Origin: a virus
Lineage: Duplodnaviria; Heunggongvirae; Uroviricota; Caudoviricetes
DNA: 29,317 bases
IMG/VR virus record: IMGVR_UViG_2872164251_000007
Location: 1-29,317 of that record
Strand: one strand, 5' to 3'
Part shown: positions 1 through 29,317 of the stretch, in pieces
How the letters are laid out: each line of letters starts with the position of its first letter
Position numbering within the stretch: the first letter of the stretch is position 1
Translations under genes and position numbers: made by a program
The notes under the pieces: model-generated
Databases searched by the model: none
What the model was told of the DNA's origin: nothing
What the model saw: the letters and a program-made list of their open reading frames with translations, nothing else

Positions 1-858
1 ATGATGGCATTATTACTGGAGCCACTGCAGTTCACCTTTATGAGTCACGCACTGCTGATTTCACTGGTAGTTTCCATACCCTGTGCGCTGCTGTCGGTCT
101 TTCTGGTCCTGAAAGGTTGGGCACTGATGGGTGACGCGATGAGTCATGCGGTTTTTCCTGGCATCGTGCTTACCTGGATTCTGGGGTTACCTCTGGCTAC
201 AGGGGCATTCGTCGCCGGAGTATTCTGCGCGGTGGCGACGGGATACCTGAAAGACAACAGCCGAATCAAGCAAGATACAGTTATGGGGATTGTTTTTTCT
301 GGCATGTTTGCCGCAGGTCTGATCTTGTATATTGCAATTAAACCAGACGTACATCTTGACCATATTCTTTTCGGCGACATGCTCGGGATAACCATCGGCG
401 ATATAATCCAGACGGTGATTATTGCCGGGCTGGTTACACTTGTTATTAGCGTAAAATGGCGGGATTTTTTGCTGTTCAGCTTTGATTATCAACAGGCGCA
501 GGTAAGCGGTTTGCATACGAGATGGCTGCATTATGGGCTGCTGTGCATGGTTTCCCTGACCATTGTGGCGACGCTGAAAGCAGTAGGTATCATTCTCTCT
601 ATTTCTCTGCTCATTGCGCCTGGCGCCATTGCAGTACTCCTGACACAACGCTTTCATATTGCGCTCCTACTGGCGACTGGCATATCGGTAATAGTGTCAA
701 TGACTGGTGTCTGGCTGTCCTTTTTTATCGACAGCGCACCAGCTCCGACGATTGTCGTCTTATTCGCGGTCGTGTTCATCATGACGTTTACCGTTACCAG
801 CATCAACGCACGCACAAAGGGAAACGCCCATACACAGGATCTGTTATCACCCAATTAG
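1..858 (+). CDS. sitD: Metal (Mn/Fe) ABC transporter permease, SitD-like
   Basis: 285-aa ORF in the track; strongly hydrophobic multi-TM protein of the ABC-3 permease type; N-terminus matches my recollection of SitD from Shigella/pathogenic E. coli. ORF starts at base 1, so the 5' end may be clipped by the window. Confidence 0.7.
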   Translation: MMALLLEPLQFTFMSHALLISLVVSIPCALLSVFLVLKGWALMGDAMSHAVFPGIVLTWILGLPLATGAFVAGVFCAVATGYLKDNSRIKQDTVMGIVFSGMFAAGLILYIAIKPDVHLDHILFGDMLGITIGDIIQTVIIAGLVTLVISVKWRDFLLFSFDYQQAQVSGLHTRWLHYGLLCMVSLTIVATLKAVGIILSISLLIAPGAIAVLLTQRFHIALLLATGISVIVSMTGVWLSFFIDSAPAPTIVVLFAVVFIMTFTVTSINARTKGNAHTQDLLSPN

Positions 859-1205
859 CACAACATCCGAGGACAGCATCGTCCGCCAGCCTACAGAAGT
901 CCGGAAAGCCATGGAAGGTCGTTGGGAGGAGGTACGAATTCTATCATGCAAAAAATACGTAAAATCGATAACGCCTAGAAATCATTCAATACTCGCACTA
1001 TCGAAAGTTTACCAGCCAACCGCGGCACGTTCCTGCATACGACGTGCCGCAGCTTCTGTTATTCCACGATAAAATTCCTAACCGAATTCAAATCCTTCAG
1101 ACTATTCAGCTCTTCCTTCAGCTCCCGCTGACGGCGATAAATCTCATCGTTGCGATCGACCTGCGCCTGCACCGTAAGCGCCCCGAGAAGTACGTAGCGT
1201 AAGGA

Positions 1206-2807
1206 TTATTTTACAGACGAGAAGTTCCAGGGCAGCAGTTCATGCACTTGGTTCGACGGCCAGTCATTGAGCTTCTCGATCACTTCGCGCAACCAGTCCT
1301 CCGGCTCCACTTCGTTCTGTTTGCAGGTGACCAGCAGACTGTAGATGATCGCCGCACTTTCTCCTCCCTTGTCTGAGCCGAAAAAGAGATAATTTTTTCT
1401 TCCAACCGCCACCGATCGTAACGCGTTTTCACCGATGTTGTTGTCTATTTCCACCCAGCCGTCACGACAGAACTCGTTCAGCGCATTCCAGTGATTCAGG
1501 ATATAGTCGAACGCCTTCGCCATCTCCGCATGTTTCGACAGCGTTTTCCTCTGCAACTGTATCCAGTCGTACAACGACTGCATCAACTGGACGCTTCTGG
1601 CTTTTCTGACTGCAAGCCGTTCCTCTGCCGGACTGCCACGTATCTCCGCTTCTATGTCGTATAACTCTGCTATCCGTCTGAGCGCTTCCTGAGTCATTTC
1701 TGTCGGACGGCGCACATCCTCGTCATGGATTTTTCGGCGGGCGTGGGCCAGGCACCCGGCTTCCTTCACCCGGCCCGTTTCGTACAGTACGTTATAACCT
1801 GCATAGGCATCAGCCTGCAGTACGCCCTGATACTTTGCCAGGTGGAGCTGCGGATGTTCTCCTTTGCGATCTGCCGAATACGCGAACCAGACGGCTGCCG
1901 GCAGGGATGAACCCGCATTACGATCATCCCTGACGTATACCCACAGACGACCCGTTTTCGTCTTTCCGTTCCCCGGGGCCAGTACTTTCACCGGAGTGTC
2001 ATCTGCGTGCACCTTTCCTGCCTCCAGAACATAGTCATTCAGCGCTATATACAGAGGACGGAGTTTGTCTGCCATTTCTGATACCCAGCGCACCATGGTA
2101 TTACGGCTCAGCTCCACGCCCTGTCGCGCGTATATTTCTGACTGGCGATATAAAGGGATATGTTCCATATATTTGCTGACCAGGATCCGTGCAAGTAACC
2201 CTGCACTGGCATAACCGCGTTCGATCGGTTTAGGGGGAAGTGGTGCCTGAACGATGACATCACACCGGCTACAGGCCAGTTTGGGACGTATGGTTTCGAT
2301 AACTTTAAAGGCGGTATTAATGATATCCAGTTGCTCTGAGATTGTTTCCCCCATTTCTTTCAGAACACCTCCACAGGCCGGGCAACTGGTTTCAGCAGGC
2401 AGAAGGCGATGTGTCTCCCGGGGAAGTTCTGCCGGCAGCGGTTTTCGTGAAGATTTTCGTCCCGGGAATTCAGGCTTACTGGCGATCGGGTTTTCTGACG
2501 GGGGACTGGTGTCAGGTGAATCTGTGACTGACGATGCATCTTCCAGAAGATTTCTGGCTGTGTTCAGCCGGTTTTCCAGTTCCGACAGTCGTTTTTCTGC
2601 CTGTCGGATCTGATTTTCAAGCTTATGACGCTTTTTCTCTGAACTCTGGCCGAACAACATACGACGCAACCTGTCGAGTTGCGCTTTCAGCCGTTCAATT
2701 TCCTGCTCATAGCCCGCGACCTGACAGGCATACTGTCGAAGCCGACTCTGTTGCTTACGCAACATGGCTTTAAGCAGCTCAATATCATCGGGGAGTTCAT
2801 TGTTCAT
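1206..2807 (-). CDS. tnpC: IS66-family transposase TnpC (orf3)
   Basis: 533-aa ORF with N-terminal coiled-coil/leucine-zipper region and zinc-finger CxxC motifs typical of IS66 TnpC. Confidence 0.85.
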
Positions 2808-2826
2808 TCCCTTGTTTTATCACGGG

Positions 2827-3174
2827 TTATATCCGGATGCCAGGCCGTTCTGTCCGTTTGGGATGTTGCCACGCGATCCCCTCCAGTAGCATGGATAACT
2901 GAGCTGGCGTCAGGTGCACTTTCCCTTCCCGGGTCACCGGCCAGACGAAGCGGCCCCGTTCCAGGCGTTTGGCGAACAGGCATAACCCGTCACGATCGGC
3001 CCACAGTATTTTCACCATTTTGCCACTGCGGCCCCGGAAGACGAAGATATGCCCGGAGAACGGGTCATCTTTCAGCGTGTTCTGCACCTTCGAAGCCAGG
3101 CCATTGAAGCCACAACGCATATCTGTGATGCCAGCGATGATCCAGATTTTGGTACCGGTCGGCAGCGTTATCAT
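2827..3174 (-). CDS. tnpB: IS66-family TnpB (orf2)
   Basis: 115-aa ORF immediately upstream of tnpC and overlapping tnpA stop by 4 nt; size and sequence typical of IS66 Orf2. Confidence 0.8.
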   Translation of the reverse strand: MITLPTGTKIWIIAGITDMRCGFNGLASKVQNTLKDDPFSGHIFVFRGRSGKMVKILWADRDGLCLFAKRLERGRFVWPVTREGKVHLTPAQLSMLLEGIAWQHPKRTERPGIRI

Positions 3175-27681: not shown

Positions 27682-27984
27682 ATGAGCAGAAAAACCCAAC
27701 GTTACTCTAAAGAGTTCAAAGCCGAAGCTGTCAGAACGGTTCTTGAAAATCAACTTTCGATCAGTGAAGGCGCTTCCCGATTATCTCTTCCTGAAGGCAC
27801 TTTAGGACAATGGGTTACCGCCGCCAGAAAAGGGCTCGGTACTCCTGGTTCCCGCACGCTGGCTGAACTGGAATCTGAAATTCTGCAGCTGCGTAAGGCG
27901 TTAAATGAAGCTCGCCTTGAGCGAGATATATTAAAAAAAGCAACAGCGTATTTTGCACAGGAGTCGCTGAAAAATACGCGTTAA
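27682..27984 (+). CDS. IS600 orfA
   Basis: 100-aa ORF MSRKTQRYSKEFKAEAVRTVLENQ... Confidence 0.85.
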   Translation: MSRKTQRYSKEFKAEAVRTVLENQLSISEGASRLSLPEGTLGQWVTAARKGLGTPGSRTLAELESEILQLRKALNEARLERDILKKATAYFAQESLKNTR

Positions 27985-28019
27985 TCGAACAATGGCGACA
28001 ACAATTTCCCATTGAAGCG

Positions 28020-28838
28020 ATGTGTCAGGTATTTGGTGTATCCAGGAGCGGTTATTACAACTGGGTACAGCATGAACCCTCAGACAGAAAACAAAGTGAT
28101 GAGCGGCTAAAACTGGAGATTAAGGTGGCACATATCCGCACTCGCGAAACATATGGAACCCGGCGGCTCCAGACGGAGCTGGCAGAGAATGGCATCATCG
28201 TTGGTCGTGACCGACTGGCACGTCTTCGTAAGGAGCTGAGGCTACGCTGTAAGCAGAAACGCAAGTTCAGAGCGACTACGAACCCGAACCACAATCTGCC
28301 AGTTGCGCCAAATCTGCTGAACCAGACGTTCGCTCCTACAGCACCAAATCAGGTCTGGGTGGCGGACCTGACGTATGTTGCCACACAGGAGGGATGGTTG
28401 TACCTCGCTGGCATCAAAGATGTTTATACGTGTGAAATTGTCGGCTACGCCATGGGAGAGCGCATGACAAAAGAGCTGACAGGTAAAGCCCTGTTTATGG
28501 CGCTCAGGAGCCAGCGCCCACCTGCCGGGCTAATCCACCACTCTGATCGAGGTTCACAGTACTGCGCATACGATTACCGGGTCATACAGGAGCAGTTTGG
28601 TCTGAAAACATCAATGTCGCGTAAAGGTAACTGTTACGACAACGCTCCGATGGAAAGCTTCTGGGGAACGCTGAAAAATGAGAGCCTGAGCCACTATCGT
28701 TTTAATAACCGGGATGAAGCCATCTCAGTAATACGGGAATACATTGAGATTTTCTACAATCGTCAGCGTCGTCACTCTCGTCTGGGGAATATCTCCCCGG
28801 CAGCCTTCAGGGAAAAATATCATCAGATGGCTGCTTAA
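28020..28838 (+). CDS. IS600 orfB (DDE transposase domain)
   Basis: 272-aa ORF, identical in protein to the copy at 4248-5066. Confidence 0.85.
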   Translation: MCQVFGVSRSGYYNWVQHEPSDRKQSDERLKLEIKVAHIRTRETYGTRRLQTELAENGIIVGRDRLARLRKELRLRCKQKRKFRATTNPNHNLPVAPNLLNQTFAPTAPNQVWVADLTYVATQEGWLYLAGIKDVYTCEIVGYAMGERMTKELTGKALFMALRSQRPPAGLIHHSDRGSQYCAYDYRVIQEQFGLKTSMSRKGNCYDNAPMESFWGTLKNESLSHYRFNNRDEAISVIREYIEIFYNRQRRHSRLGNISPAAFREKYHQMAA

Positions 28839-28881
28839 AAAAAGAACAAATGGTAGTGTCCGCTATTGCCAGTACACCTCA

Positions 28882-29317
28882 GGACGCCTGCATCAAAACG
28901 TTCAGAAACGACATCGGTCAAACCATAATCAATGGTAAGCTGAATATCAATTTCAGGATGCGATTTCAGGAATGTGCGCATGGCTGGTAACAATATCGTT
29001 TTTGCTGCATGTTCTACAGTAGTAATACGTATTGTCCCGGATGGGCGGTTCTGCAGATCGCTCAGGGATGTCAGGGCAGAATCTATGTCATGCAATATAG
29101 GGCCAAGAACAGACAAAAGATGCTCGCCCGCTTCAGTGGGTACAACGCTGCGCGTGGTTCGCGTCAGAAGCCGCAATCCCAATCGTTCTTCTATACGGCG
29201 CACTATCTGGCTTAAAGCTGACTGCACCATGCTCAGGCGGGCTGCTGCGCGAGTGAAGCTACGCTCCTCTGCAACGACGACAAACGCCATCAGATCAGCG
29301 ATTTCTTCACGCTTCAT
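28882..29317 (-). pseudogene. LysR-family transcriptional regulator, 3'-truncated by IS600 (about 145 N-terminal codons retained)
   Basis: N-terminal HTH region MKREEIADLMAFVVVAEERSFTRAAARLSMVQSALSQIVRRIEERLG is a typical LysR signature; the frame runs into the IS600 right end at 28881. Confidence 0.7.

Follow-up and report, generated by a model that had tools for sequence, protein, structure and literature searches.

Insertion sequences in a decayed sit prophage of Shigella flexneri, and a small tRNA-integrating island nested within it

The stretch of DNA analysed here, called the window throughout, comprises the 29,317 bp of IMG/VR virus record IMGVR_UViG_2872164251_000007. It carries parts of a lambdoid prophage, nine copies of insertion sequences (IS) and, at its right end, a piece of a core chromosomal gene. 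The subject of this report is the accumulation of IS in this prophage, which is assigned below to the 'sit island' of Shigella flexneri, and a small tRNA-integrating island that lies inside it. The nine IS copies were mapped to the base. They sum to 12,300 bp (41.96% of the window), which reproduces the nine copies, about 12.3 kb and about 42%, given in a preliminary description made from the letters of the sequence. Element ends, inverted repeats and target duplications were read directly on the sequence, and repeats were located by comparing the window with itself. The IS copies are the following.

1174-3927, minus strand: ISSfl3-like element of the IS66 family, 2,754 bp, with ends GTAAGCGCCCC...GGGGCGCTTAC; tnpA, tnpB and tnpC intact
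3928-5109, plus strand: IS600 copy 1, a fragment of 1,182 bp, 99.75% identical to 27700-28881; abuts ISSfl3
5987-7235, plus strand: IS911, 1,249 bp, ends read; duplication GGC at 5984-5986 and 7236-7238
10050-11359, plus strand: IS629/IS1203-type element of the IS3 family, 1,310 bp, with ends TGAACCGCCCC...GGAGCGGTTCA; duplication GTT at 10047-10049 and 11360-11362
15734-16346, minus strand: IS600 copy 2, right 613 bp only, found by self-comparison; inverted relative to copies 1 and 3
16347-18175, plus strand: IS91 isoform (ISEc37-like), 1,829 bp; NCBIfam IS91 transposase in two in-frame pieces; compared with an intact copy (L023)
19917-20684, plus strand: IS1, 768 bp; 9-bp duplication TACTAACAG at 19908-19916 and 20685-20693
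25835-27165, plus strand: IS2, 1,331 bp; 5-bp duplication GCATC at 25830-25834 and 27166-27170
27618-28881, plus strand: IS600 copy 3, complete, 1,264 bp; orfA and orfB intact; flanks aag and gga

The elements were identified with NCBIfam, Pfam and the ALIL model of Rfam, and by annotated near-identical copies. Shigella plasmids carry full-length near-identical copies annotated as ISSfl3, IS600, IS911, IS2, IS1 and IS91/ISEc37, as well as full-length copies of IS629, and the IS911 copy does not differ from that of pCP301 (100% identity). The gene tables of identical loci list Pfam rve, HTH_Tnp_1 and IS1 domains. Seven IS species are represented: the ISSfl3-like element, IS600 (three copies), IS911, IS629, the IS91 isoform, IS1 and IS2. 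The preliminary description had counted seven families; these are seven species in four families (IS3, IS66, IS91 and IS1), where IS600, IS911, IS629 and IS2 are all taken by us to belong to IS3, following the ISfinder classification. Their lengths (IS600 1,264, IS911 1,249, IS629 1,310 and IS2 1,331 bp) lie within the 1.2-1.35 kb of IS3-family elements, and their ends are inverted repeats of the form 5'-TG...CA-3' (TA...CA in IS2). Each consists of two consecutive reading frames that a -1 frameshift connects: orfA encodes a helix-turn-helix, and orfB a DDE domain ('rve'). RefSeq copies of these elements are annotated with a 'programmed frameshift', and in IS629 the ALIL frameshift pseudoknot was found at 120 bits (Rfam). 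Duplications of 3-5 bp flank IS911, IS629 and IS2, but not IS600 copy 3. The IS1 copy shows the length of 768 bp, the 23-bp inverted repeats, the insA/insB' frames and the 9-bp duplication of its family, with DDE_Tnp_IS1 and Zn_ribbon_InsA in the gene tables. ISSfl3 has the three genes of an IS66 element (NCBIfam IS66_access_TnpA, E = 4.9e-85; IS66_TnpB, E = 5.5e-37; transpos_IS66, E = 6.5e-140), and plasmid matches named ISSfl3 begin at window positions 1173-1174. An 8-bp target duplication was not found around it (flanks cctgcacc and cgttactc); it stays a member of the IS66 family by its genes and ends, and the missing duplication marks a deletion or recombination after insertion.

IS911, IS629, IS1 and IS2 are each a simple cut- or copy-and-paste insertion whose duplication is still perfect. 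At all four sites the IS-free alleles are contiguous and overlap by exactly the duplicated bases. The empty sites of IS911 and IS629 are found in E. coli locus L001 (9032-9038 and 11849-11851) and those of IS1 and IS2 in E. coli locus L002 (14863-14872 and 20828-20832). IS911 lies between genes, whereas IS629 and IS2 each split one, a rha-family regulator and a ydaU-like replication gene, respectively. The IS1 duplication keeps the stop codon of the small gene that adjoins it. Together with the two ends of IS91 described below, these are the five elements with perfect duplications or precise junctions that had been pointed out beforehand, and the estimate of at least six truncated or split genes also holds. 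Six non-IS genes are cut, namely the DUF4376 tail-fibre gene, rrrD, rha, ORF6N, ydaU/DUF1376 and pgrR. With the exception of rha, which is part of the island listed further below, they are given here with the genes and RNAs that lie beside the junctions.

1-858, plus strand: sitD, last gene of the iron/manganese transporter sitABCD, prophage cargo, intact; 100% identical copies in E. coli genomes bear the sitD annotation, and NCBIfam gives ABC-permease matches
1059-1173, minus strand: last 38 codons of the DUF4376 tail-fibre gene, cut by ISSfl3; full gene at L022 1081-1704
5110-5297, minus strand: first 63 codons of the lysozyme gene rrrD (Pfam Phage_lysozyme), cut by IS600 copy 1; full gene at L022 25184-25681
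15224-15733, minus strand: ORF6N (antirepressor-like) gene (Pfam ORF6N), first 16 codons gone; the uninterrupted allele L021 has 98 bp more
18178-18262 and 18290-18365, minus strand: C4 antisense RNA and isrK, phage antirepressor-control RNAs (Rfam, 77.6 and 63.5 bits)
25094-27578, minus strand: ydaU/DUF1376 replication gene, split by IS2; DUF1376 in gene tables, PHROG match to replication initiation, contiguous in L002
28882-29317, minus strand: first 145 codons of pgrR (ycjZ), a LysR-type regulator and core gene, cut by IS600 copy 3; identified by its pgrR annotation

The junction at ISSfl3 and IS600 copy 1 was resolved by comparison with the enteroinvasive E. coli strain CFSAN029787 (locus L022), in which a prophage of about 45 kb, nearly intact, occupies the Rac site between uspF and ttcA. 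The order in that prophage is sitABCD, tail, head, terminase, lysis, tRNA cluster, Q-like, replication, immunity, recE and int. Window positions 1-1173 correspond to L022 23-1195 (99.9% identity), and the window from 5109 onward corresponds to L022 from 25493. The 24.3 kb in between (L022 1196-25492), with tail, head, terminase and lysis genes, are absent, and ISSfl3 and IS600 copy 1 stand in their place. The two elements bridge the loss of these genes; sitABCD, directly beside the tail-fibre genes, was kept. IS600 copy 1 lacks its left 82 bp, that is, the left inverted repeat, the promoter and the first 6 codons of orfA, and is therefore immobile.

Of the three IS600 copies only copy 3 is complete. 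On one side of it pgrR breaks off at codon 145, and on the other lies phage DNA from immediately upstream of the ydaU-like gene. No target duplication was found around it (flanks aag versus gga) and phage DNA lies next to pgrR, so this copy is a recombinant or rearrangement junction; it joins the phage replication region to a core gene. The truncated LysR-type gene had been considered as abgR; this was rejected, as no match to L002 was found, and the gene is pgrR, which is annotated in 5,227 of 5,426 E. coli genomes. The neighbours beyond it match the ycjY...tyrR region. The open reading frame (ORF) formed by the fusion of pgrR' with IS600 is indexed in 128 blocks of a public assembly collection. 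Junctions that lack duplications would have arisen by recombination between IS copies or by IS-adjacent deletion. That IS600 occurs three times in both orientations, as stated in the preliminary description, is correct (plus, minus, plus, at 99.7% identity); that all three are complete, as it implied, is not, two being fragments. Its suggestion that the copies serve as substrates for inversion or deletion is borne out by three elements that lack duplications and join DNA not contiguous in relatives.

The third of the complex junctions involves IS600 copy 2 and IS91. Elements of the IS91 family use a rolling-circle HUH (Y2) transposase and have neither inverted repeats nor target duplications; their ter end is 5'-CTCG and their ori end lies next to a GTTC/CTTG target (PMC13181058). 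The copy in the window conforms to this in both ends, in the absence of inverted repeats and of a duplication, in its HUH (Y2) transposase and in the overlap with orf121, and it shares with published IS91 the CTCG ter end (CGAG on the tnpA strand), the GTTC target (GAAC) and the length of 1,829 bp (PMC13181058). It differs from known IS91 in its location inside a truncated IS600 and in a nonsense mutation of tnpA. The ter end, CGAG at 16347, breaks IS600 copy 2 just before IS600's own GAAC. The ori end abuts GAAC at 18176-18179, which is native phage sequence in the IS-free allele L021, and the intact reference copy L023 has the same two ends. An origin of the GAAC at 18176 as an IS600 leftover was rejected, because it is native in this closely related IS-free allele. 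Upstream of tnpA, orf121 is intact (121 codons, 16435-16800) and overlaps the tnpA start by one base (TGATG). A supposed frameshift in tnpA was corrected to an in-frame nonsense mutation, TGG>TGA at 17493-17495 (W231*): the match to NCBIfam transpos_IS91 falls into two parts, profile positions 2-218 and 231-355, which lie in one frame on either side of the TGA.

Between the two GAAC sites, IS600 lacks its other 651 bp, and 98 bp of phage DNA present in L021 (99.1% identical) are gone. IS600 would have inserted first, and IS91 would then have entered copy 2 at a GAAC site. An adjacent deletion would have followed, by intramolecular rolling-circle transposition to the next GAAC, which would have removed the 651 bp of IS600 and the 98 bp of phage DNA. 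The 3' end of C4 RNA lies 2 nt from the IS91 end; therefore, the block of IS600 copy 2 and IS91 parts C4 and isrK from the ORF6N gene downstream.

The window is S. flexneri DNA. The genome of S. flexneri 3b strain SFL1520 (CP032513) is 100% identical to window positions 2960-24570, over 21.6 kb. This genome is a hybrid MinION and MiSeq complete assembly and contains 355 IS in 4.58 Mb, about 7% of the genome (PMC6424224). All non-IS backbone of the window matches chromosomal E. coli prophage, island and core DNA. According to the passages of PMC7545054 that cite Fisher et al. 2009, the sitABCD island is adjoined by phage genes and IS, and its size and position vary among E. coli and Shigella. 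The window has in common with this pathogenicity island (PAI) sit of S. flexneri that sitABCD lies beside phage genes and IS. The comparison with CFSAN029787 adds to the published PAI sit a prophage of about 45 kb at the Rac site, in which sit adjoins the tail-fibre genes, and a Shigella copy from which 24.3 kb of that prophage are gone. The window is accordingly read as the decayed 'sit island' of S. flexneri, a lambdoid prophage at the Rac site (uspF...ttcA) that brought in sitABCD and was colonised and dismantled by IS expanded in the Shigella lineage, that is, by standard Shigella genome decay. To this account, taken as one, a probability of about 95% is given.

The IS types agree with this assignment. 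Five IS are expanded in all Shigella species, IS1, IS2, IS600 and IS911 among them (Hawkey et al. 2020, PMC7373316), and IS1203 (IS629-type) and ISSfl3 are listed for S. flexneri (PMC7373316). Pseudogenisation and deletion driven by IS are an accepted mechanism of genome reduction in Shigella (PMC7373316). The Shigella-type expansion proposed in the preliminary description is thus borne out, the DNA being that of S. flexneri and IS types of the expanded set being present. The published descriptions of IS expansion (PMC7373316, PMC6424224) concern the same species and very probably the same strain as the window, with the same IS types and the same outcomes: interrupted genes, deletions and rearrangements. 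There is no difference in kind from Shigella genomes at large; the local density is 42%, compared with 7% genome-wide. The window also shows nesting, with ISSfl3 against IS600 and IS91 inside IS600, which is invisible to mapping-based surveys. It is a real local IS hotspot, with about six times the genome-wide 7%. The dead prophage and the IS copies themselves would be targets in which insertions are costless, so that accumulation and nesting would follow, and the sixfold density would be due to insertions that cost nothing.

At the same hotspot, one related S. flexneri genome, L005 (CP049606.1), carries an extra IS600 at 12932-14196, inside the IS2 of the locus at about window positions 26383-26391. 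It shows continuing IS activity from strain to strain.

Nothing contradicts the account given above as a whole; the points that follow are matters of detail. The density statistic is post hoc, the window having been picked for its IS richness: with 355 IS in 4.58 Mb, a stretch of 29.3 kb should hold 2.3, P(>=9) is 6e-4, and about 0.09 such windows are expected per genome. The events at ISSfl3 and IS600 copy 1 may have taken place in either order. The junction of pgrR with phage DNA may be a deletion or one end of an inversion. Finally, at IS600 copy 2, and there only, IS91 could have arrived by one-ended transposition from a donor already inside IS600, bringing the 613 bp along. Of IS91 transposition events, 1-10% are one-ended, and these carry along DNA that lies past the ter end (PMC13181058); also in favour of this route, the ori end lies at a GAAC that is native to the phage. 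Against it, the piece of IS600 carried along would need to stop precisely at the terminal repeat of IS600, and the 98 bp of phage DNA would call for a separate deletion; moreover, no plasmid among the matches listed has the same IS600/IS91 junction. This route is less economical and is regarded as unlikely, and insertion in situ with an adjacent deletion is the simplest reading of the IS600/IS91 block.

The account of a decayed sit prophage was also weighed against explanations that concern the whole locus. IS-rich regions are a classic failure point of short-read assembly, draft assemblies break here, and the preliminary description had itself raised the concern that IS copies were collapsed or duplicated; misjoined copies would belong to the same class of artefact. 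The hybrid source assembly is identical over 21.6 kb, however. Over 18832-29317, the sequence is colinear with that of five other genomes (about 99.4%), in which IS1, IS2 and IS600 occupy the same positions, and a sixth (L005) differs by its extra nested IS600. The contigs of at least six draft assemblies stop within a few bases of the boundaries of IS629 and IS600 copy 2, and one draft (L009) spans 1174-16048 in the same order. The junctions are thus reproduced by the hybrid assembly, by other genomes and by the contig ends of drafts, which makes an artefact extremely improbable, and assembly error is excluded. A plasmid origin of the locus has equally little to recommend it. The best plasmid matches are pINV-type plasmids at 99% identity, but plasmid matches are limited to the IS elements, no plasmid record covers at least 80% of the query, and the non-IS backbone is chromosomal, for example pgrR and the Rac-site prophage adjoining uspF. 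Hawkey et al. suggest pINV as a possible source of IS types (PMC7373316); pINV may be such a source, but is not the source of the locus. That one or more functional composite transposons are present, for example IS600 copies 1 and 3 around 22.6 kb as a mobile unit rather than a product of decay, is scarcely credible, for although two direct IS600 copies of 99.7% identity lie 23.8 kb apart, copy 1 is without its left inverted repeat and hence gives no outer left end, the outer flanks share no duplication, and the enclosed DNA consists of broken phage genes.

Two phage functions beside the decayed modules are intact or appear so. A P21-type phage holin gene is intact at 5322-5501 on the minus strand (Pfam Phage_holin_2_1, E = 1e-24). 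An apparently intact hok/sok toxin-antitoxin pair survives at 21175-21499 (Pfam HOK_GEF; Rfam sok, 118 bits).

Between the lysis genes and the tRNA cluster of the prophage lies an integrative island with the following features, all on the minus strand.

5794-5810: attL, the displaced original 3' end of the phage tRNA; 18-nt match to the 3' end of the L002 tRNA
5811-14717: tRNA-integrating island of 8.9 kb, which shrinks to 6,342 bp once IS911 and IS629 are subtracted; colinear with an island at chromosomal glyU in E. coli L001
7486-8475: 329-aa protein, predicted HK97-fold capsid (AlphaFold2 and Foldseek)
8559-9050: 163-aa acidic protein directly upstream of the capsid gene; isoelectric point 5.6; many helix-forming residues (E, K, R, Q, A, L or M make up 53%)
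9348-11389: rha-family regulator of the island (Pfam Phage_pRha), split after codon 10 by IS629; first 10 codons at 11360-11389; intact counterpart at L001 11150-11878
12320-12928: 202-aa island protein in a variable slot adjoining the integrase; no family match; segment diverges from L001
12960-14570: island tyrosine integrase, 536 aa; Pfam Phage_integrase, E = 1.6e-18; PHROG 1 integrase
14705-15015: phage tRNA cluster Gly(UCC), Thr, Arg, Met/Ile2; ARAGORN and Rfam tRNA; same cluster in L002 and L022

The order on the minus strand is integrase, 202-aa protein, about 0.9 kb of non-coding DNA, rha, a 58-aa protein, the 163-aa protein and the 329-aa protein. At its right end the island provides the 3' end of the first tRNA of the cluster, so that attR lies in a regenerated tRNA at 14705-14779. 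The empty site is found in L022 at 26198-26201 (within L022 26189-26259). The same island is present at chromosomal glyU in E. coli L001 (strain 31B19CPO012), and E. coli strain CFSAN064035 also has an intact island. Rouxiella and Citrobacter share the gene order, and so does a relative with only 34% identity in the large protein. The integrase was used as the look-up query; the fusion ORF of rha with IS629 (TTG start) matched one contig only. The capsid module occurs in 311 of the 5,426 complete E. coli genomes (about 6%) and is always annotated as hypothetical. IS911 has struck the island DNA between the capsid gene and attL. The copy in the window is probably dead, because IS629 splits rha.

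The locus is also a case of nested mobile elements, an island in a phage-borne tRNA inside a prophage, later struck by two IS.

Apart from the integrase and rha, the island proteins have no sequence match in Pfam, PHROG, PADLOC or PDB. The variable slot (window 12283-13018 versus L001 12770-13508) is occupied in other islands by a DUF4145 protein or by an unrelated 166-aa protein, and by analogy it resembles the cargo or defence hotspot of other satellites. AlphaFold2 with 11 close homologues of the 329-aa protein gave a predicted local distance difference test score (pLDDT) of 35.7. A profile search then added distant homologues, some of which have C-terminal immunoglobulin-like domains, and on the resulting alignment of 39 sequences the pLDDT was 81.9 and the predicted template modelling score 0.76. 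With this model, Foldseek returned 198 matches in PDB at E <= 1e-3. The 50 that are listed are, without exception, encapsulins or HK97-type capsid proteins, phage or engineered. The 329-aa protein is hence predicted, from this model, to have the HK97 capsid fold. The 163-aa protein is scaffold-like by position, and a putative scaffold role is given to it. The capsid-fold protein is the only recognisable virion function of the island, whose other small proteins are without family matches.

The non-coding stretch contains three promoter-like sites, all on the minus strand.

11706-11717: site A, promoter-like, in the context TGACTAAACTATCACTATAGGGACC; 22 of 22 nt identical to the promoter of Kayfunavirus ZG49 at 17930-17951
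12267-12306: tandem sites B CCTTAACTATCACTATAGGGGAG (12267-12278) and C TAATACACCTCACTATAGAGGAA (12295-12306), at the start of the non-coding stretch; found by motif pattern

Site A is conserved in L001, L024 and L027. Site B is identical to ZG49 26152-26171 (20 of 20 nt), and site C agrees with the T7 consensus in 18 of 23 positions, counted by eye. The motif YCACTATAGRGG has three matches in the window against 0.25 expected, all in the non-coding stretch of the island and on its coding strand; the T7 consensus with up to three mismatches was not found in the window. About 11 such sites are present in ZG49, a K1F-like phage, all on the coding strand, and the promoter 15-mer recurs 3-7 times per viral contig of about 40 kb. 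Between the island and ZG49 no protein similarity was found, and the DNA similarity is limited to the promoter sites. Sites A and B would, by their sequence, qualify as T7-group promoters, which share a contiguous run of about 20 nt from roughly -17 to +3. Besides the tandem pair, one of the three promoter-like sites lies upstream of rha and the genes for the 58-aa, scaffold-like and capsid-fold proteins. Related islands keep the sites in the same place and orientation, and in a distant relative of the island the corresponding position is taken by another motif, which is T3-like. At the primary replication origin of T7, tandem promoters are transcribed by the phage RNA polymerase, and this transcription serves to prime replication. 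The tandem promoter-like sites that open the 0.9-kb non-coding stretch recall this layout.

The island has one property of a phage satellite, being an integrative element with its own recombinase and att sites, for which an empty site is known. Like P4-like elements, PICI, capsid-forming PICI, PLE and PICMI, it is small, with an integrase and tRNA att sites of its own; like these, it is compact and conserved in gene order, and it has a capsid-fold gene but lacks recognisable genes for replication, terminase or tail. It differs from capsid-forming PICI in being far smaller (6.3 kb) and in having only a capsid gene and a putative scaffold gene. What sets it apart from known satellites is a set of putative expression signals that correspond to promoters of virulent T7-like phages. 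A literature search found no satellite family with T7-type promoters and no paper on such an element, which is not proof that none exists. From its sequence, tentatively and with the balance somewhat against it, the island may represent a hitherto undescribed family of minimal elements that encode a capsid and are turned on when a virulent T7-like phage infects, by the RNA polymerase of that phage. It would then be a satellite that takes portal, tail and packaging machinery from T7-like helpers or, alternatively, a defence island that uses the phage polymerase as a sensor of infection.

The IS load of the window is real and was rightly interpreted in the preliminary description, but it is already known Shigella biology; as a textbook phenomenon it adds nothing new by itself. 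The locus is a clean, base-resolved case of insertion, nesting, IS-adjacent deletion and IS-mediated rearrangement within a dead prophage. It serves mainly as a reference for annotating this locus and as a caution that short-read assemblies break in such regions. The one unexpected thing in the window is the island, which deserves a separate look. If T7-type promoters do drive it and the capsid that it forms is its own, the island would represent a new kind of parasite of, or of defence against, strictly virulent phages.

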